Assembly: GCA_044892525.1 (NCBI GenBank)
Contig: CM097885.1
Coordinates: 112,344,001-112,408,000 of the forward strand
Reading direction: 5' to 3'
Source of the DNA: Schmidtea polychroa
Taxonomy: Eukaryota
Length of the DNA stretch: 64,000 nt
The notes under the pieces are model-generated. The model was not told the DNA's origin. It saw only the letters and a program-made list of their open reading frames with translations, and did no database searches. Made by a program: the position numbers and the translations under genes. Within the stretch, counting starts at the first letter, position 1; the number at the start of each line of letters is the position of its first letter. Below, one piece after another: positions 1 to 36,895 of the stretch.

Positions 1-2
1 CA

Positions 3-482
3 TCATTCTATAAAGAACAAATATTTGGTGACAGAAGAATGCCTAATTTTATTCTGGTAACATTTCAAAGTGAAACGCAATATATTGGATCGTATACTGC
101 TTCCAGCTCAATTTTCAAAAATTTTGGTGTTACTTCATTGACTTTGTCGAAAAATACTGATTATAGAGAAACATATACTCAAGATTTCGAGAATGATAAT
201 TACTGTGCGACATATATGCAGAGTATTGTTAGAAATCTGGGTTATTTAGATAAAAACTTGAATTGCGGAATAACTCTTGAAGAATTTAAAAGCAAATACC
301 CATTTTTCACATTTGTTCTAGCTCCCGATTTTGATTTAAATCAGAGTCAATTACCACAAAACGGGAATTTACGACTGGATATAAAGTTTGCAAAGGCCAT
401 TACTGAACCAGTACATGTTATAATATATGGAGTATTTGAAAATGAAGTTCAAATTACTGCAAATAGAACCGTGCTAGTATAA
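3..482 (+). CDS. Polinton major capsid protein (double jelly-roll, PY/hexon-like), C-terminal part; frame is open to the window edge
   Basis: C-terminal GNLRLDIKFAKAITEPVHVIIYGVFENEVQITANRTVLV* resembles the Polinton MCP terminus; lies directly upstream of the protease. Confidence 0.85.
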   Translation, partial: SFYKEQIFGDRRMPNFILVTFQSETQYIGSYTASSSIFKNFGVTSLTLSKNTDYRETYTQDFENDNYCATYMQSIVRNLGYLDKNLNCGITLEEFKSKYPFFTFVLAPDFDLNQSQLPQNGNLRLDIKFAKAITEPVHVIIYGVFENEVQITANRTVLV

Positions 483-510
483 ATGTATACAGAAACACCA
501 AAAAGTTGTC

Positions 511-894
511 ATGGAGTAAGTTTTTCAATACTGTTTAATTTATTAAAGTAGTTCTGTTCAGGTCAATAGAATTGGAAAACAGATATTGGGAAATGAATTT
601 GTAGGAGTTTTTCCTCTCGATAAAATCCCATATTTGAGCAATAATCAAGCCATAATCGTCAATACTCAATCGTCTCATCTTGGTGGAGAACATTGGATTG
701 CTATATATGTGAAACCTAGTAATATATTCGTGTTCGATCCTATGGGTTTCTATTACCCTGCTTTGTTGGTATCAAAACTACAAACAATGGGGAAACCTAT
801 TGTATATAATAAAACAATGTTTCAAAATCCCTTGACACAAACATGCGGTCAACATTGTTTAGCTTGGTTGTTGTATAAAAAATTTGATGATTAA
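511..894 (+). CDS. Adenain-family cysteine maturation protease, predicted spliced (exons 511-515 and 552-894)
   Basis: Motifs GVFPLD, NT..S..GGEHW (His), FDP (Asp), FQNP..QTCGQHC (Gln/Cys). The ORF has no in-frame ATG unless intron 516-551 (GTAAG...TAG) is removed, giving MDSVQVNRIGKQILG. Confidence 0.9.
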
Positions 895-3060: not shown

Positions 3061-3238
3061 TAATGATAATAATGATAATAATAATAATAATAATAAAATC
3101 ACACATTTATAGTTTACAAGACTTTATTAATATAAATACAATTTCATGATTAATATTAATTGATAAATATAATTAACAGGCAAATTATATCCACATTACT
3201 GCCAGGCTTCAACTGGTCACTCAAATTTATGTCACAAA

Positions 3239-4390
3239 GTGATGAAAAAATATTATGGTCGTAAATTTTATGGCATCAAGTACTATATATGCCCAATATG
3301 CGAGACTTCCCATAGCATTAAATATTTAGAGTTTTACAGTATACATAAATCCCATTTAAATCAGTTCTCTTTAAATAAAAAGGATTTATTTAACAAACTA
3401 CGAAATACTGCAAAACCTATAATTAAAACTAATGTAAATAATACAAAACCTGTAAATAATATTACAAAACCTGTAAATAATAATACAAAACCTGTAAATA
3501 ATATTACAAAACCTGTAAATAATAATACAAAACCTGTAAATAATATTACAAAACCTGTAAATAATAATACAAAACATGTAAATAATAATACAAAACATGT
3601 AAATAATATTACAAAACCTCTAATTAATAATGTTATTAATGTAAATAATAATTTAAAAAGACCTGCTGTTAGTATTGGGTCTGATGCTCCCTCTAAAATT
3701 AATAAATTAGAACAAATAACTGTGGTTAATAATATTCAAGTAGGCGGTTCAGTCGATATTGACGATGAACCTGAAATCGAAATTGATTTTAAGGGGGTTC
3801 GAAAGAATCTAAGATTTAATGTAGAAAAGGATAACATCATTCAAATATCCATAACCGATAAAATCGTTAATAAGTTAAATCATGAAATAAACAGAATGGG
3901 GTCGGTGAAAATACAATTCTCTGTTTTGATTCAATTTGAAAAAGATGGTGAAATTAAAGATAATTTCTTCTCGAATAGGGCAGAGGCTTTTTCAGATAGT
4001 TTTCTAAGTGAGGGGGTTCACAAATTAAATAATAAAATAGAAAAATTCACATATTTGGGTAGTGGATGGCGGGTTGTTAAAATCAAAGAAATAGATTTTA
4101 TATTAACAAAATTTACACATATGAATAGGCTAGCTGGACATAGTTATATCCCCACCCCATCATCTTTAAATTCTAAAAATGCAATAGTAAACGTTAAAAA
4201 CACTGATGATATGTGCTTTATATATAGTATTTTAGCACTTTTAAAACGTAATGTCGTACATAGTCATAGGTACCGTGTTAGTTCCTATGAAAATTATCTC
4301 AACGAGTTAAATTTTGACCCCATTTCCGACTGTCCAATGAAACTATGTGATATTCCTAAATTCGAGATGAAAAATAAGGATTTAATTTAG
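3239..4390 (+). CDS. pPolB: N-terminal portion of protein-primed PolB (terminal-protein/accessory region), separated from the catalytic part by a frameshift
   Basis: GSGWRVVKIKEI, GHSYIPTPSSLNSKNAIVNVKNTDDMCFIYSIL and IPKFE..N motifs are typical of the Polinton PolB N-region; the frame continues after removing 5 nt at 4385-4389. Confidence 0.85.
   Translation: MMKKYYGRKFYGIKYYICPICETSHSIKYLEFYSIHKSHLNQFSLNKKDLFNKLRNTAKPIIKTNVNNTKPVNNITKPVNNNTKPVNNITKPVNNNTKPVNNITKPVNNNTKHVNNNTKHVNNITKPLINNVINVNNNLKRPAVSIGSDAPSKINKLEQITVVNNIQVGGSVDIDDEPEIEIDFKGVRKNLRFNVEKDNIIQISITDKIVNKLNHEINRMGSVKIQFSVLIQFEKDGEIKDNFFSNRAEAFSDSFLSEGVHKLNNKIEKFTYLGSGWRVVKIKEIDFILTKFTHMNRLAGHSYIPTPSSLNSKNAIVNVKNTDDMCFIYSILALLKRNVVHSHRYRVSSYENYLNELNFDPISDCPMKLCDIPKFEMKNKDLI
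3434..3625 (+). repeat. In-frame 21-nt / 7-aa tandem repeat (N/I)TKPVNN inside the PolB N-terminus
   Basis: About 9 units, alternating in a 14-aa higher-order period. Confidence 0.9.
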
Positions 4391-7269
4391 CAATAAATGT
4401 TTTAACTTATAGAACAACCCCTGCTAAGCCTTTTGAAAATATAGTTGACGATAATTATATTCCACATCATCCTCAATTGGATATAATTCACCGATCTAAG
4501 GTTATAGGTGGTGAACCCATATACTTACTTTTATTGGAAGATGGTGATAATTTTCATTACACCGCAGTTTTTAATTTGCAAAGATTAATGAACTCGCACC
4601 GTAGTAGCTCTTGTAGTGTTCAAATTAAAGTGAACTGGTGCCCCCATTGTCTCAATGGTTTTCGACTTAAAAATGCATTTGATATTCACGTTGCTTTATG
4701 CATTAAAAACCAGATAGGTACTACTTTATACACGCTACCCAAAGATAAAAATTTAATTTTTCAAAATTATGCGAAAACCATAACCCCGCCATTCGTGATA
4801 TATGCAGACTTTGAATCAATTTTACCGGGGGATATAATACACCATCAAAAGCATTTGCCAATAACAGCAGGTTTATTATTAATAAATAATTATAATAACT
4901 CTAAATTTTATTATGAGTTTGTTGGGGATGATTGTATCTTATCTTTCTTGCGTAAGGTGGAGGAAATTGCTATGACAATTGTCCTGCCATATTACGAAAT
5001 TAATGGGAAAAAGCCCATGCAGACCTTGTCTTTCGCTGAAGAGCGGGCCTTTCGTGATTCCAGAACCTGCTACCTTTGTAAAAAATTCATTAAGAATAGA
5101 GTTAGGGATCATTGTCACTTTTCAGGTAAGTATCTTGGTGCTGCCTGTATGAAATGTAATGTTTCTCGACGAATTCAGAAACAGTTACCTGTGGTTTTTC
5201 ACAATTTGAGGGGGTATGATCTTCATCATATTTTGAAGTATGGTTTGAATAATTTTCCTTCTTGGGAATTAAATATTATTCCGACCACTACTGAGAAATT
5301 CATCTCTCTTATCGCGTACATTAACAAATTGTCTGTTCGTTTTATTGACAGCATGCAGTTTGTTAATTCATCTTTAGCAAAAGCAGTTAAGACTCTTTCC
5401 GATCTGCCTTTAACTTCTTCTGTTTTCGATGGCGCAATTGTTCGAGCCAAAGGTATCTTTCCTTATGACTTTGCAACTTCGCTTGAGGTTCTGGAATCGA
5501 CTCTTGAATTGCCTCCTATTTGGGATTCTGTGTCTAATGATGAATATGCATTAGCCCAAGTAATTTGGACTCAGCAAAACTGCAACAACATGTTAGATTA
5601 CATGTTAACTTACCTTAAATTAGACGTGTTTCTCCTCGCAGACTATTTCCAACAATTCCGTGCAAAGGCCATTGCTTACAATGGTCTTGAGCCTCTTAAT
5701 TTCTATGGCATTCCCGGTATGTCATGGGCCTCTGCGCTTATGACATTAACGGAACCCATTGAACTTTTGCAGGACATGGAAATGTTTAATTTCTATGAAG
5801 GAGGGATACGGGGTGGGTTAACATTTGTTAACAAACATTATGTTGCAAGTTCTGAAGACACAGAACTCTTGTATATTGATATTAATAACTTGTATGGTTG
5901 GGCCTTAAGCCAAAATCTGCCTTATGCTGACTTTGTTTGGGTGTATGATGATCTTGATTCTGTCTTGAATGAATGTATGAATGCTGATATCGATAACCTT
6001 CCATATGGTTATACTATGGAGGTAGATATCGATATACCTGATTGTTTGCATGACTTTCTGAATGATTTTCCTCTTGCTCCGGAAAAGATGTGCCCGCCAA
6101 ATTCTAAAGTTGAGAAGCTGATGCTCACGCATTGGCCGAAGAAGAACCATGTTCTTCATTGGCGACTTCTCAAGTTGTATATAGAATTGGGGGCTATTAT
6201 TAAAAATGTACATAGAGCAATCAAATTTAAGCATGCACCCATTTTCAAATCTTACATAGACAAAAACACTAATTTGAGAGCCAATTCTACATGCGAATTA
6301 TATAGGGATCTATACAAATTATTTAATAATAGTCTGTATGGGAAATCCGTAGAAAACCTTAAAAAACGGATGAATTTGAGGCTATGCAATTCAGCTGAAA
6401 AGATGATTGTATATGCTTCAAAGCCGACTTTCAAGAAATCTATCAAAATTGATGATGACTTGATTGCTGCACATCTATATAAGGATTCTATATGTTTAGA
6501 CAGGCCTAGTTACATTGGCCAAACGGTGCTAGACCTGTCTAAACTGAGGATGTACCAGTTACAGTATATAGAATTGGCTAAATATAGAAATGAATTTAAA
6601 TGTGAGATAAATATCGTTGCCGGCGATACTGACTCCTTTTTTCTTGAGGTTAGGCACTGTAAGCTTGACATTCTTTTGCCGGCAATGATTCGTGACAATC
6701 TTTTAGACACTTCCAACTATGACCCTGCACATCCCTTATACTCTAGAAACCTTGATTCGGTGATAGGTAAATTTAAAGATGAAAGTAAAGGTCTAGGGTA
6801 TAAGGAATGGGTTTTCTTAAGACCCAAGTGCTATAGTTTGTTAGGGGCTAAAGATCATTTAAAAGCAAAAGGAGTCAGGTTAATAGGTACAGAAATTAGG
6901 CACGATTCATATTTAGAATGCTACAATAACAACGTAGTATTTTCTGTGCCACAAAGTAGGATAGGGACGCGGAACCATCAATTGTACACATTTAAAAACA
7001 ATAAAATCGCGTTGACAAACAACGACGACAAGCGGTTTTGGGTGGGGAAAAATTCCAGTCTCGCATTTGGTCATTATTTAGCACTAGATGATATAAATGA
7101 TGATCAAATATTTGAAGAAGTTGGGCCACTATTCGGAGGATTAAGTCCAGATTTTGTTTCTGGTGATGAGGAAGTGGGTCCACTTTTCAATGGTTTAAGT
7201 CCAGATTTCGATTCTGGTGATGATCCTAATGATAAAAGAGATATAGATGATATTTTATTGTCAGACTAA
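4387..7269 (+). CDS. pPolB: Protein-primed family B DNA polymerase, catalytic part (3'-5' exonuclease, EndoVII/HNH-like Zn insertion, polymerase)
   Basis: ExoI YADFES, ExoII FHNLRGYD, ExoIII YLKLDV, PolA YIDINNLYG, PolB KLFNNSLYGKS, PolC AGDTDS, GKFKDE, LRPKCY; CYLC..RDHCHFSG..GAACMKCN insertion. No internal stops. Confidence 0.97.
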   Translation, partial: LAINVLTYRTTPAKPFENIVDDNYIPHHPQLDIIHRSKVIGGEPIYLLLLEDGDNFHYTAVFNLQRLMNSHRSSSCSVQIKVNWCPHCLNGFRLKNAFDIHVALCIKNQIGTTLYTLPKDKNLIFQNYAKTITPPFVIYADFESILPGDIIHHQKHLPITAGLLLINNYNNSKFYYEFVGDDCILSFLRKVEEIAMTIVLPYYEINGKKPMQTLSFAEERAFRDSRTCYLCKKFIKNRVRDHCHFSGKYLGAACMKCNVSRRIQKQLPVVFHNLRGYDLHHILKYGLNNFPSWELNIIPTTTEKFISLIAYINKLSVRFIDSMQFVNSSLAKAVKTLSDLPLTSSVFDGAIVRAKGIFPYDFATSLEVLESTLELPPIWDSVSNDEYALAQVIWTQQNCNNMLDYMLTYLKLDVFLLADYFQQFRAKAIAYNGLEPLNFYGIPGMSWASALMTLTEPIELLQDMEMFNFYEGGIRGGLTFVNKHYVASSEDTELLYIDINNLYGWALSQNLPYADFVWVYDDLDSVLNECMNADIDNLPYGYTMEVDIDIPDCLHDFLNDFPLAPEKMCPPNSKVEKLMLTHWPKKNHVLHWRLLKLYIELGAIIKNVHRAIKFKHAPIFKSYIDKNTNLRANSTCELYRDLYKLFNNSLYGKSVENLKKRMNLRLCNSAEKMIVYASKPTFKKSIKIDDDLIAAHLYKDSICLDRPSYIGQTVLDLSKLRMYQLQYIELAKYRNEFKCEINIVAGDTDSFFLEVRHCKLDILLPAMIRDNLLDTSNYDPAHPLYSRNLDSVIGKFKDESKGLGYKEWVFLRPKCYSLLGAKDHLKAKGVRLIGTEIRHDSYLECYNNNVVFSVPQSRIGTRNHQLYTFKNNKIALTNNDDKRFWVGKNSSLAFGHYLALDDINDDQIFEEVGPLFGGLSPDFVSGDEEVGPLFNGLSPDFDSGDDPNDKRDIDDILLSD

Positions 7270-7918: not shown

Positions 7919-9059
7919 TTAAAAATAGTAATAAAACTTAGAAAATAATAATATGTAATCAACGATTTAAACAAAATTATATTATTACGTATTCGATAAT
8001 TAAAACAAAAATTATTAGTTCTAAAAATATTTGGCATCGTTCTAAAAATATTAGACATCGTTCTAAAAATATGACGTAATCGTTCTAAAAATATTTGGCA
8101 TCGTTCTAAAATTATGACGTAATCATTCTAAAAATATTAGGCATCATTCTAAAAATATTAGGCATCATTCTAAAAGTATGATGTAATCATTCTAAAAATA
8201 ATAGACATCGTTCTAAAAATATTTGGCATCATTCTAAAATATTAGACATCATTCTAAAAATGTGATGAGTCATTGTCTTTGTTCTAAAAATGTGATGAGT
8301 CATCGTATGATAAAAATCTATATCTCATTAGAAAGTTCTTGCACAGAGCTTTAAAATAAGCTATCGATCAATATAATATGTTGGCGGGAACAATAATTTT
8401 TGGGATGAAAAAAAGTAGGTCCCCGCTGGATCACTTAATTTAAAAAAAATTACGTAATAGTTCTAAAAATATTAGGCATCGTTCTAAAAATATTAGGCAT
8501 TGATTACGTAATAGTTCTAAAAATATTAGGCATCGTTCTAAAAATATTTGGCATCGTTCTAAAATTATGACGTAATCATTCTAAAAATATTAGGCATCAT
8601 TCTAAAAGTATGATGTAATCATTCTAAAAATAATAGACATCGTTCTAAAAATATTTGGCATCATTCTAAAATATTAGACATCATTCTAAAAATGTGATGA
8701 GTCATTGTCTTTGTTCTAAAAATGTGATGAGTCATCGTATGATAAAAATCTATATCTCATTAGAAAGTTCTTGCACAGAGCTTTAAAATAAGCTATCGAT
8801 CAATATAATATGTTGGCGGGAACAATAATTTTTGGGATGAAAAAAAGTAGGTCCCCGCTGGATCACTTAATTTAAAAAAAATTACGTAATAGTTCTAAAA
8901 ATATTAGGCATCGTTCTAAAAATATTAGGCATTGATTACGTAATAGTTCTAAAAATATTAGGCATCGTTCTAAAAAAAAAATAAAATTTTTTCCCGGGGG
9001 GGGAGGGGGTATATGTGATCTGGAGGGGACATGGCCGGGAGGGGACACATCATACTACT
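7550..9059. repeat. Right terminal (TIR) / subterminal repeat region of Polinton 1
   Basis: Repeat pair flanking the gap at 7554-7880; ~20-nt GTTCTAAAAATATT(A/T)GGCATC arrays at 8030-8975; a 432-bp tandem duplication (marker at 8261 and 8693); G-rich tip ending ACTACT. The partner TIR is outside the window. Confidence 0.7.
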
Positions 9060-9900: not shown

Positions 9901-9960
9901 ATTTTGTCATTTTTTAATTAGTGGAGTAAACATCGTGAAGGGGCGGAAGAGAAGGTACTA

Positions 9961-10288
9961 CTGTAAAATCCCGAGTATAAGCTGCAGCTAATACGTACAT
10001 TAAGGCAACATTTCTGAATTGCAGCTAATATGATGTGCAGCTTATACAACTAAAAATCGAAGATAAGATTATTTATTTCAATTTTCAACATCACACTCCT
10101 CAAAACCATCACACTTTTCATTGTCAATAAAAGTGAAATTTTTTAGTAATTCTACAATGTTTGGATCAGACTCGTTCACATTCATTTCATTTGTTTTTTA
10201 ATGATAGATTGCTGATTTTAAAATCATGTGTTTTCAACGCAAATGGTGCAGCTAATACGCGCTGCAGCTTATACTCGGGATTTTACAG
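9961..10288. mobile_element. pogo/Tc2-like MITE
   Basis: Perfect 28-bp TIR CTGTAAAATCCCGAGTATAAGCTGCAGC; TA on both sides. Confidence 0.9.
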
Positions 10289-10831: not shown

Positions 10832-12010
10832 ATGGGTGCTAAGAATTCATTACCGGATAAACATAATTTAGATTTAAATATATTAACATCGTGTTGAAGG
10901 AAACATTTTCCAAAAAAAGGTCAAATCAAAGAAGAAAATATTAGAGAAAAAACTCAAAACGATTTGGACAAACCCGAAAGATCCAGATGGTTTTGGTGGT
11001 GTAGAAAAACTTGCAAAAAGAGTAAATAATTCAAAGAAAGAAACTCAAATATGGTTATCTAATCAATTAGCCTACAGTCTCAATAAGCCAATGTTAAAAA
11101 GATTCCCCACGAGGTCTTATAAAACATTTAATGTTAATGATTTATGGCAAATGGATTTAATGGAAATGATTTCATTTTCAAAAATTAATAAAGGATACAA
11201 ATATATTTTGACATGAATTGATGTATTTAATAGATACACTCATGCTATCCCAACAAAATCTAAATCAGCTAATGAAATGGCTGATGCATTAAAAACATTA
11301 TTTGCTGACGGACAGCCTCGTAATTTACAAACATATTTGGGTAAAATTATAAATTAAATAATTTTAAAATTTAGGTAAAGAATTTTATAATAGTAAAGTT
11401 AAAGAAATTATCAAAGGAATAAATCATTACTCAATATTTTCACAATATAAAGCAGCACATGTGGAAAGATTCAATCGTACTTTAAGAGATCGTTTGAAAA
11501 AATATTTTGTATATCAAGGCGATAAAACGTGGATAAATGTTTTGTCGAAAATAATTTACAGTTACAATTTTTCACCTCGTAGAGGATTAAATGGGATAAG
11601 ACCAATCGATATTTATTCAACAAATAGTAATGATACTTGAATATCACAACAAAATAAATCAAAAACAAAAAAGCCAAAATATAAAAAGTAGGAGACCTTG
11701 TTAGAATAAGTAAAATCAGTGCTTCTCCATTCATCAAGAATTTTGATAACAATTGGAGTGATGAAGTTTTTAAAATATTGAAAATAGATACTAATCAAAT
11801 CCGGTCATGCACTTTATTACAGATAATGAAAACGATCAAGTCAGTGGCAAATTCTACGAACAAGAACTACAAGTCATTCCATCACCCACAATCTTCAGAA
11901 TTCAAGAGATTTTAAAAACTAAATCAGGCGGGAAATATAAACAATACTATGTGAAATGGCATGGTTATAAAATTCCTAGCTGGATATCTGAAAACCAATT
12001 GATTAAATAA
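10832..12010 (+). pseudogene. Polinton retroviral-like integrase with C-terminal chromodomain; predicted 34-nt intron at 11341-11374
   Basis: WTNPKDPDGFGG, DLWQMDL, YILT*IDVF, LQT(Y)LG|GKEFYN, HVERFNRTL; chromodomain FRIQEILK...YYVKWHGY..PSWI. Has stops and a D-to-Y change at the second catalytic position. Confidence 0.92.
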
Positions 12011-13144: not shown

Positions 13145-14881
13145 CAGCGCCGGCTCTAGCATTAGTAGCGCCCCGATGCGAAACTCATTTTAGACGCCCA
13201 TTTATTTTATTGGTTTTTTGGAATTAACGTAATTTAATTGGCAATATTAAATTTGTAATAAAAACATTAAAAAATTAATAATAATTCTTTTCCAAGTGAA
13301 ATACAGGTTTTATTTTGTTTATATATTTTTTTATTTTATTGAAACAATATTATAATATACAAAAATTACATAACATACATATATTTTGTATAAAAATTGA
13401 CAAAACTATTATTCTAGATATTTACTTTTCTAGCTTTTAAACTGCCAAATTCATCAATTAAATTATGTATATCTAATTTGTCGCATATATCACTTTCAAT
13501 CGATATCATTGCTAAACCAACTAATCTTTCTTGTGAAATTGTTGATCTTAAATAATTTTTAATTAGTTTAAGCTTCGAAAAAGATCGTTCTCCGCTAGCA
13601 ACTGAAACTGGTAAAGTTAAAAATATTTTAATAGCAATTACAAAATTGGGAAAAATGGAATCCAGTAGATTTTTATATATATATTGCAAGATGTTTAGTG
13701 GGTTTTCAAAGTCTTTCAAAAATTCCTTTGCTATTTTTATTTCATTAAATAATTCTGTTGCAGATATATCTTTTTTCTCGCCATCGGTTAGCATTATTTC
13801 TAAATCAGAACAATGTTTTTTTAATGTATTATCATCCATTTTGTTAATTTCTTTTATATTATGTATAAATTCAAATTTTTCACTATATTTTGTGAAAAGA
13901 TTAAACCTTTCTTTTAAAGAATTGATAGTAATATCTAAAATTGGCAGAAAAAATGATATTTTATATTTAAGTATCGGATCAACTGGCGTTTCGTCTACAG
14001 ATTCATAACCAAAAATTTTTTTCTTTCTTCTTCGTAACGTATTATCTTTGAATTTCGCAGGTATTTCTAAATCAGCTGCTATATTTTCTGCCGTTTGAAG
14101 AATAAGACTAAAATTTTCATCGGATCTATATTCTTCAATAAATTTAATAAGACTATTTAACGCAACTGAAGAAACATTTAAGTTTTGATTTGGATTTTGG
14201 AGCAGTTTACTAACAACGTTAACTTTACTTAAAACATCGTACCAAATAACCACTGAACATATAAATTCATACTCTTTTATTTTGAAAGCCACAGCCTTAG
14301 CTTCATGCTTTGTATTATTATCTATTTCTAGGTTTTCATAAATGTCAACTAAAGCATCTAAAATTTCAGCTATTTCAAACCTAAGTGGACGAAGGGCATC
14401 GACTCTTGATTCCCACCTGGTGGCTGACAAAGGTGGCTGAACACTTTTTTATTTTACTATTAAAATTTTAATATTAAATTTTTTTTTTATTAGCGAAAAA
14501 AGTTTACCAAATAACAACTGAACTGATTGAAAACTGAATAGAACTGGTAGACTTTTAAAATAATTTTTTTTAGCATTAATTTTTTTAATCGAAATAACTA
14601 AACCGAATATAGCAGGCCGTTTCAAAATAAATTTATGCATGTATAATTTATTTTGTTTTGCGAAATAATTAAACAATTCTTAAACACTTCGAAAACTAGT
14701 AGGCCAGTAGTTTTTCAAGGAAATTTTATTTAAAAAAAAAAAAATTCTTATTAAAAAAAAATTTGTTAATGGTTTTTTTGTTAAATATTAAAAAGAAACT
14801 AAAATTCTAAATTGTTTAGCGCCCTTTCCGAGAGGCGCCCCGATGCTTTGCATCCACCGCTTCCAACTAAAGCCGGCCCTG
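13145..14881 (-). mobile_element. Internally deleted hAT transposon
   Basis: TIRs CAGCGCCGGCTCTAG / CAGGGCCGGCTTTAG; perfect 8-bp TSD GGTGGATT at 13137-13144 and 14882-14889. Confidence 0.95.
13414..14430 (-). pseudogene. hAT transposase C-terminal half (ZMYM1-like group)
   Basis: SATRWESR and the dimerization domain LTLPVSVASGERSFSKLKLIKNYLRSTISQERL; N-terminal half is missing. Confidence 0.9.
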
Positions 14882-15000
14882 GGTGGATTTGCTTTAAAAG
14901 AGATTCAAATTACATCCAATCGTACAGTACTAGTGTAAATAAAGTTTGAAAATTATTGGCTTGAACTATAAACTAAATTAGGAAACAATAATTATTAAAA

Positions 15001-15290
15001 ATGAAGTAAGAATTTAATTTTAATTACTTTAATTTATTGATAATAGTTCTATTCAGATTGAATACATAGGTCGAAGAATTGTTCGGAGCTGAATTTCTTG
15101 GAGTTTTTTCATTAGATAAAATACCATATATTGATGTAAACAAGGTTTTAATTTTAAATACTCAATCTTGTAATTTCAAGTGAGAACTTTGGCTCGCAGT
15201 TTATGTGAAACCGGAAAAAATATATGCATTTGATCCCATGGGGTTTAATTATCCTATTTTCAATTATTTTCCATATAGGTCTGATTGTTT
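15001..15290 (+). pseudogene. Adenain protease of Polinton 2; predicted 41-nt intron at 15006-15046; frameshifted
   Basis: Spliced start MNSIQIEYIG; EFLGVFSLDKIPY, LILNTQS, WLAVYVKPEKIYAFDPMGFNYP align with the element 1 protease. Confidence 0.85.
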
Positions 15291-34271: not shown

Positions 34272-36895
34272 GGGTGGCAAAACTTTCAAGTCTTGCGGGC
34301 GACTTTTAACTAAATTAAATCTGGCGGTCTACCAGAAAAACTATTTTCAATTGTTACCTGTAGTTATTCTATTTATTCTATTTAAATACAAAACGAATTA
34401 GAAAAAAACTTATAATACTTTACTAGAACGTAAACATATCTTAATATAATATTATTTACTGCTACTACTTGCACCTGATACGTGGCACTGCATCTTATCA
34501 GCAAGTTCTTCGTATTTCGGGCAATAGGAGCTTATGGCGATCCGCAAGCATGATTCCAAATGATCATCTGTCAAACAAGATCGATGTTTTGTTTTAATGA
34601 CATTCATTGAAGAAAAGGCTGATTCACAAAGATAGGTGGATCCAAAAAATGCGGACATATATTCAACTACTCTCCGCAAAATTGGATATTTTTCTTCTGA
34701 AATAAGATTCCAAAAATTATCTTCGGTTGTAGCTCTTGATTTTAAGTAAATGTCGCTTTTCAACGCTATTATCTCATCTTCTAAGCAAGCTGAATCTGAA
34801 TCCAGAAATTCATTAATCTGAGTAGCGATCTCCTCTGTATCAATAACATCATTAAACGGGAATGACATGAACATAGCAATATTTGCAATTTTAGATAAAT
34901 CTGCGAAACGTGTGTTAAATTCATTTAAAAGGGTAGTAATTTGATTTGTATATTTATCGTAAAGAATTCCTGGCGCATTTTTGGATTCTTCTTCCATGTT
35001 TTTAAAATGTTTCAAATCACCCCGTTCTAGTTGACGCACAAACAAGGACAGTTTCTCTTTAAACGTCTTTACTGCCGTTATCATGTCAAGAATTGATTTG
35101 TGTCTCCCCTGAAGCTGTAAATTTAATTTATTCAGGTGCTCTGTAATGTCGCAAAGAAAAGCAAGATTTATCAGCCAACTTTTATCCTCCAGTTCGGGAT
35201 ATAATTCTTCTCTTCCAGTCAAAAACTGTTTTATTCCGGGCAAAAGATCTCTAAATCGTTTTAAAAATGCTGCACGGCTAAGCCATCTTACATCCGTGTG
35301 TAACAATAATTCAGTATTTTCAATTTCACATTGTTCAAGCAAAGTTCGAAATTGACGTCGTTGTAGACTTTTTGCACGTATCGAATTTACTATTTTAAAC
35401 GCAATATTCATTACATAATTAGAGTTCAACACTTTGGAGCATAAGGTTTGCTGGTGGATAATGCAATGATACGAATGAAAACTGGGAATTTCTTCATCAT
35501 TTTTGCAAAGTGTTACAAATCCGACATGTTTTCCGATCATAGACGGAGCTCCATCCGTGGTAATTGATACCAACTTGTGAATCGGGAAATGGGTGCGACT
35601 TATAAAAGACTTGAATAAATTGTAAATATCTTGACCCCTTGTTTGTCCTTTCATTGGAAGAATAGTCAATAATTCTTCTCTGGTTGACATATCATCAAAA
35701 ACCATTCGAATGAAGATGCATAGTTGCGCAGTATCAGTGAAATCTGTAGATTCATCAAATTGCAAAGAGAAAAAGCGGCATTTTCGAATATCTTGCCGCA
35801 AAATATCTTCCAAGTTTTTGCTAATGTCCACCATTCTTTGCGTGCTAGTATTGCGCGTCAATGACATATTGTTGATACAATCCATTATTTCGGATTTATT
35901 TTTAAAATCTTTGAATAACACCTCACCAGCTTCAACAAACGCCTGTTTCCATATTTCGCCATCTCCAAAAGGTTTTTTATGTTTCATCAAAATATTAACT
36001 ACCTTGAATGATGCTAGGGTAGCTGTTTTTGATTTTGAGTTAAATTTCGTAAAAAAAGTTTGTTGTGCACCTAATTGAGACTTTAACTGCTTGACTTTGT
36101 CTTTTCGTACCTCGGAATGTAATGGAAAGTCATACTGTTTGTGCACTGTTCGAAAATGTCGTTCAACGTTAGCTCTTTTAGGTAGTGCTACGTTTGAATT
36201 ACAAATGAGACAAACACACTTATCTTTCATCATTATGAAAAAAAATTCCTGTTCCCATTCAGTATTATAATGGTACGTTTTAGTTTTTTTGGCCGGTTGT
36301 GTCATTGGGGCTAAAACAAGAAAATAATAAAAGCTAAAATAAATTTAATATGAAAATTAATGTTAGACACACTTACATACTCAAAAATTAAAAATGTTAA
36401 CTTTTATAAAGAATTTTTTTTAATAAAAAAATTTTGAAATTAATATTATAAGCAGGTATTATTCAATACTGAATACTTCAAGCTTTCAAATTTTTCTAAC
36501 GAAAACAATTTGATTTCAAAATTGAAATAGACAAACACACGTTTGTTGTATTTTATTTTGGTTGTTTTTTATTTTTTTATTCCTTATCGAAGATTGTAGC
36601 GTCAATGTTTTGCTTTTATTTTATGGCCTACTTGTTCAAACACATGAAATTTATTCTGATTATTAGCTAACTGTATATATTTGAATTTCAAACTAAAAAT
36701 TTACTACACTCTGAGTGTTATCTGACTAATATTATGTTTCTTATTGGAATTTTTTTGTCATATGAATCGAAACTTATTTTAAATATGTTTATAAAGTTAG
36801 AAATTCAATAAATAAAAAACTGATTTTTATATGCAATTTTCCATAGTGCTAGCGGGCTACTTTCGATAGCTACGCGGTCGACGCTTTTGCCAGCC

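Follow-up and report, generated by a model that had tools for sequence, protein, structure and literature searches.

An old, clade-defining mini-intron probably splits codon 2 of the adenain-type protease gene in one lineage of Maverick/Polinton elements

The 64,000 nucleotides of the Schmidtea polychroa genome analysed here (the window) contain two adenain-type protease genes whose start codons appear to be separated from the rest of the frame by a very short intron, which raises the question whether this interruption is a genuine spliceosomal intron and how old it is. In the element 2 protease, coding exon 1 (15001..15005, +) consists of ATG AA, i.e. the start codon and two bases of codon 2. 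It is followed by a 41-nt intron in phase 2 of codon 2 (15006..15046, +; GTAAG..AATAG) and by T TCT ATT CAG at the beginning of exon 2 (15047..15255, +); codon 3 becomes a stop if the intron is retained. The element 1 equivalent comprises coding exon 1 with ATG GA (511..515, +), a 36-nt GT..AG intron at the identical site (516..551, +) and an open exon 2 (552..894, +) with His, Asp, Gln and Cys motifs. This exon 2 matches Pfam Peptidase_C5 (PF00770) with 28.9 bits against a cut-off of 21.3, and the profile scores above its cut-off for both protease families. The original prediction of one intron site, but two intron lengths, in two adenain genes can thus be read directly in the window. Its estimate that the proteins are about half identical holds for the decayed copy at 15001 (38 of 69 residues), but not for the sibling loci of element 2, 28 of 29 of which are 65-67% identical to the element 1 protease (the last one 59%).

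The protease copy at 15001 is dead. Its exon 2 is a broken remnant with a frameshift near 15077 and an in-frame stop at 15181-15183, the catalytic His is lost, and homology ends at 15255, upstream of the catalytic Cys. Exon 2 is open and retains every catalytic motif in 27 of the 29 sibling loci, and ATG AA is likewise found in 27. Both proteases belong to Maverick/Polinton elements. Element 1 begins 7,465 nt ahead of the window, ends at position 9059 and has AGTAGT/ACTACT termini; the right terminus (9054..9059, +) is followed by a 6-bp target duplication identical to the left-end flank, and the inverted repeat is 77% identical over ~1 kb. The element harbors the 3' part of the major capsid gene (1..482, +) and a putative protein-primed DNA polymerase region in two frames (3173..7269, +). 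In the segment 4378-7269, motifs that we take to be of the Pol A, B and C types are visible, and the only Pfam match, Endonuclease_7, lies below its cut-off; the frame change at about 4375-4390 resembles a break of this copy more than an intron. The integrase in the adjoining locus L110 matches PF00665 (rve) with 33.5 bits (cut-off 32.6). A putative ATPase is represented by a partial frame with a Pox_A32 match below cut-off (E=0.005) and a Walker A-like motif upstream; an in-frame stop is located between this motif and the remaining gene (L110:5744-5753). The capsid genes are presumed, since they were assigned from position, size and conservation and have no Pfam match.

Element 2 is a wreck. 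Its integrase (10887..12010, +) is broken into several frames, a hAT transposase fragment (13414..14448, -; PF05699) is inserted upstream of the broken protease, and only the 3' tail of the major capsid gene (14896..14938, +) is left in this copy. The integrase contains a GT-AG intron of 34 nt (11341..11374, +). Three families of this genome share an intron at this site; in element 1 (L110) it measures 42 nt, in a third family (L115) 40 nt. Further short introns were seen around element 1: a small acidic frame at about 1638-2203 contains three phase-1 GT-AG introns (1690-1736, 1797-1842 and 1951-1997; 47, 46 and 47 nt), and a probable one is located near the start of a small acidic gene of element 1 (L110, about 4388-4423, -). 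The polymerase frame opens with a phase-1 acceptor at about 3179, and the exons of the frame at 1638-2203 may therefore also serve as a polymerase leader. Other mobile sequences in the window are a short inverted-end, MITE-like element between both Mavericks (about 9955-10275) and a second hAT transposase frame of 630 aa with a Spin-doc zinc finger (34452-36344, -).

Could the interruption of codon 2 be a chance arrangement? The donor motif ATGNNGTAAG alone is not rare: the window has four occurrences where 1.6 are expected, and this number is also attained in 14 of 100 shuffles. The full ATG-NN-GT..AG arrangement at a fixed acceptor occurred in 18 of 20,000 shuffles of 14941-15047. In the AT-rich, 781-Mb genome, a protease search returned 5,043 candidates, of which the 150 scored are all 100% identical at the protein level. 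From four genome searches we compiled 120 protease loci, which are top matches, many of them near-identical, and represent about seven lineages. The arrangement is present in 118 of these 120 loci, with a shift of up to 3 nt tolerated for damaged copies, and the other two have no ATG. Intron lengths amount to 36 nt (31 loci), 37 nt (12), 38 nt (16), 40 nt (31) and 41 nt (28). An upstream in-frame ATG without an intervening stop was found in a single locus of the 120, and the first in-frame Met of exon 2 sits beyond the catalytic His and Asp, thus an AUG-initiated protease is impossible without splicing. The search for a processed, intronless copy in the genome yielded one match to the 17-nt junction motif, which is a chance match in unrelated sequence. 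Tandem arrays of protease-containing fragments ~4 kb apart and other local duplications were also observed (G000, C2, about 102.217-102.297 Mb; L080-L085; L078).

Beyond this genome, 9 of 19 metagenome protease loci carry ATG AA|GT..AG at the identical site, with introns of 37-43 nt, a GC content of 0.28-0.32 and 47-62% identity. In the remaining ten (GC 0.35-0.42) the intron is absent and codon 1 itself is a plain ATG. The spliced protease start corresponds exactly to the contiguous start of these intronless relatives, and the orthologues are collinear. The original prediction would have failed if the pattern were absent from most family members; it was found in nearly all loci of the own genome and in about half of the metagenome loci. 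The intron/intronless split implies that, as far as the sequences tell, the intron is ancestral to one AT-rich Maverick clade and not to all Mavericks; the predicted ancestry holds for this clade and not beyond it, where close relatives are intronless at the DNA level. The major capsid protein, encoded next to the protease, served as an independent marker. Its tree, based on 23 of 29 chosen loci (six with fewer than 100 capsid residues were dropped), separates 15 intron-bearing from 8 intronless rows by one change on a branch with 100/100 support; it is unrooted and comes with a long-branch warning, and AT bias could help to group the intron rows. A single gain in the AT-rich clade would be the simplest reading, an earlier gain followed by loss in the sister group the alternative. 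The protease-only tree is unresolved at this depth and too weak to test a single origin.

The protease tree sets ten distant contiguous-start proteins apart (90/91), and most distant adenain protein calls begin contiguously. Two contiguous-start proteins, P0002 and P0070, fall inside the own-genome clade; the contiguous spliced start of P0002, P0165 and P0070 reflects either spliced transcripts or gene models, or intron loss, and P0004 and P0166 are ambiguous cases. A Met at the spliced distance is present in 87 of 140 motif-bearing homologous proteins, in a collection that favours unbroken frames. The N-terminal extensions of P0005, P0006, P0009 and P0018 read like the protease intron translated through. 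Two scans of a viral contig collection, one with the protease alignment and one with a capsid piece, revealed no relatives.

The comparison of 13 representative introns documents constraint at both ends. GT, A at +4 and AG are each conserved in 13/13, G at +5 in 12/13 and a YAG acceptor in 13/13; examined for U2-type ends, the introns have a GTRAG-type donor and a YAG acceptor, and their removal restores the conserved frame. Lengths range from 36 to 43 nt and include all three remainders modulo 3. Outside the closest subfamilies the interiors are no more alike than shuffles, and no conserved interior block was found among the 13 as a candidate for the branch point. The TTTAATTTATT block noticed earlier is indeed shared by both introns of the window, but it recurs in only 3 of 13 representatives; as a possible branch region it is not conserved beyond chance, and the intron interiors of the two window families are 0.66 identical versus 0.57 in shuffles (p=0.06). 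In the proposed comparison of exon dN/dS with intron divergence, the interiors resemble shuffles outside the closest subfamilies, and 14 of the 15 pairs that could be computed give a dN/dS of 0.06-0.29 for exon 2 (0.55 for one frameshifted copy); the calculation covers 19 of 78 pairs, four of them saturated, and dS is near saturation. Exon 2 is under purifying selection. Invariant ends with a drifting interior are the pattern of an intron that would be selected at its ends only.

The elements' introns resemble candidate introns of their host. Eight candidate introns in host chaperonin genes are of the same style and 40-49 nt long, which places the element introns at or just below the short end of the host, and the shortest ones (36-38 nt) fall under this range. 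They also lie below the planarian intron length peak of 45-85 bp given in the part of PMC13594981 consulted. On inspection for an introner-like common sequence, nothing but the ends is alike between the candidate introns of the host and those of protease and integrase. Repeated long open frames with a piece of the chaperonin (Cpn60_TCP1) domain were found at many places of the genome (L162-L174) and are probably mobile element cargo.

Four sequencing runs were compared over positions 1-897, of which X1, X2 and X5 are possibly RNA and X15, of unknown kind, was used as DNA comparison. A spliced joint 515-552 is absent among the joints listed (15 of 37), which come from contigs that may or may not be RNA. 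In two of the possibly-RNA runs, contigs contain the unspliced intron (an X1 record spanning 466-602 and an X2 record starting at 539); they may represent DNA carry-over, capsid read-through or transcripts of a silencing pathway. A first exon of the presumed 5-15 nt is hard to align and would seldom map. Given the doubtful kind of the intron-keeping contigs and this short exon, splicing is something that we infer. A depth dip at 481-540 in X5 could reflect the divergence of a related species and was hence not used. The predicted past function of the intron is supported by the selective constraint on exon 2, which also offers no other usable AUG. Splicing was not observed in these contigs, and the copy at 15001 itself is a pseudogene.

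A TATA-like box precedes both protease genes. TATAAAC of element 2 (14967..14973, +), a predicted promoter, is located ~33 nt before the ATG, and TATAAAT of element 1 (478..484, +) overlaps the capsid stop codon (480-482). In a count of 12 intron-bearing and 7 intronless representatives, ATAAAY is present at -31 to -35 from the protease ATG in ten intron lineages (0.25 expected by shuffling), at -39 and -46 in the other two and in none of the intronless ones; in the own genome, 115 of 120 loci have it at -31 to -33. The distance from box to ATG is constant while the capsid stop shifts from +1 to -62. The box coincides with the capsid codons Q-I-N in five metagenome lineages. Just upstream of the window, head-to-head with the ATPase, lies a short gene for a TATA-binding protein (L110:5068-5541, -; PF00352, E=3e-15). 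Homologues of this mini-TBP are present in four intronless metagenome relatives (L101, L107, L108 and L109), and TBP is therefore not confined to the intron clade.

The explanation that we favour, and regard as highly probable, is a real host-type spliceosomal mini-intron that was gained once in one AT-rich Maverick/Polinton clade and has been kept since, with host splicing needed to produce the virion-maturation protease. We infer that host polymerase II transcribes the gene in the nucleus from the local TATA-like box ~33 nt before the ATG, which would result in a cap-proximal first exon of only ~5-15 nt. The spliceosome would remove the mini-intron and create the M-D/N-S start that is contiguous in the intronless relatives; without splicing, translation would end after two codons. 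Once present, the intron would persist because loss of a splice site kills the essential protease gene; the copy at 15001 has decayed in the meantime.

The absence of any intron, i.e. an AT-rich spacer with chance GT and AG and a protease that is either unexpressed or initiated at a non-AUG codon, would agree with the commonness of the donor motif and with the missing junction among the RNA joints listed. We nevertheless consider it very improbable, because the splice sites do not vary even though synonymous distance is saturated and the interior randomised, the arrangement is so rare in shuffles of a single locus, and the intronless sisters place their ATG at the identical codon. It is somewhat less improbable, but still unlikely, that the acceptor is real and its main 5' partner an upstream leader or the capsid gene, in the manner of an adenovirus-like late leader or a capsid-protease fusion, with ATG-NN-GT as a minor or relic donor. 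The donor is not fixed by any RNA junction, in 6 of 7 intronless relatives the end of the capsid frame reaches 11-14 nt into the protease gene, and adintovirus Hexon-adenain fusions by frameshift have been proposed as possible (10.1101/2024.03.25.586562, in part). Against a distant donor, all 13 of 13 lineages retain ATG together with the GTRAG-like donor, although the distance to the capsid stop is variable, and the start spliced from the proximal donor equals that of the intronless relatives exactly. An alternative donor, ATG-GA-GTATTT in the capsid Y-G-V-F motif, was rejected, since it is present in only 5 of 9 intron-bearing metagenome loci.

Spliced-leader trans-splicing, in which the terminal AUG of the leader is joined to the protease acceptor, is the least probable of the alternatives and barely credible. 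The host looks planarian-like in genome size and composition, and a flatworm leader ending in AUG can provide a start codon (PMC9851317, in the section consulted), but here this AUG would be out of frame because the first base of exon 2 completes codon 2, and the conserved ATG and donor would be left unexplained. A regulated switch, with retention (start-X-stop) holding the protease off until late, is compatible with our main reading, yet we think it rather unlikely. It would fit the stop at codon 3 on retention in 13/13 lineages, the intron-retaining contigs of the possibly-RNA runs and the fixed distance between box and ATG. However, any phase-2 donor that reads GTRA produces this stop automatically, P0018 and P0009 hint at relatives whose donor is of the GTATG type and which lack such a stop, and the 13 representatives have no conserved interior element.

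To return to the favoured mini-intron, comparison supports well that the intron is old, defines a clade and lies in one of the core genes of Mavericks. A wider idea, tentative and open to considerable doubt, is that the clade rewired its protease from a capsid-overlapping gene into a unit with its own box, a cap-proximal micro-exon and a host-spliced intron. Splicing might then act as a timer or host-range gate of capsid maturation, the mini-TBP of the element might recognise the box, and core-gene introns might be a mark of how a virus-like element adapted to the splicing of one host or to that host's silencing of intronless RNA. If protease and integrase are spliced, ORF-based pipelines would mis-start the proteins or call live elements decayed, and several database protein calls examined here appear to be mis-started already. 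The intron would imply nuclear, host-spliced transcription of a virion-assembly gene and offers a traceable gain, with intronless sister elements, in a virus-like element of which a single animal genome contains at least 150 copies with identical protein. The claim is a moderate one: for nuclear DNA viruses, splicing of genes is nothing unusual, and the claim extends to no special function of the intron.

In the literature searched, a conserved intron is not described for the protease of any Maverick; the founding papers of 2006-2007 or repeat databases may contain an earlier exon annotation of planarian Polintons. Judged from the accessible parts of the respective papers, intact vertebrate Mavericks are without introns (PMC8097293), Caenorhabditis Mavericks have intronless core genes and cargo with introns (10.1101/2022.07.12.499685), Polinton-like viruses carry group I introns (PMC12220804), and one Maverick survey scored as intact only intronless open frames. 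Spliceosomal introns in core genes are not mentioned at the terms searched in PMC8502044 and 10.1101/2023.08.22.554363; the related literature compared in part also includes 10.64898/2026.10.13.758929.

The elements described here are like animal Mavericks/Polintons (adintoviruses), as far as the sections consulted describe them (PMC8097293, 10.1101/2022.07.12.499685), in possessing an integrase, a putative polymerase, a putative packaging ATPase, presumed capsid genes and adenain, AGTAGT..ACTACT ends, a 6-bp target duplication, a length of ~16.5 kb and a protease directly after the major capsid gene. In contrast to the Mavericks of vertebrates and Caenorhabditis, their protease and integrase carry lineage-wide mini-introns, and the reported trait of core genes without introns does not apply to these two genes. 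Spliceosomal-type introns within Polinton-like elements are also known as dinoflagellate introners, which are, according to the part of the study consulted (PMC11957031), young, repeated transposon insertions that were mostly acquired after integration. The protease intron differs from them in being old, single, conserved in position, without a repeat interior and inherited with the element. The gene resembles its adenovirus counterpart in belonging to the adenain family (PF00770) and in its location downstream of the major capsid gene. Adenoviruses are transcribed in the nucleus with host splicing, and their protease frame is unbroken and reached by splicing from a distant leader. In the Maverick gene it is codon 2 that the intron interrupts, and the predicted promoter is a local TATA-like box.
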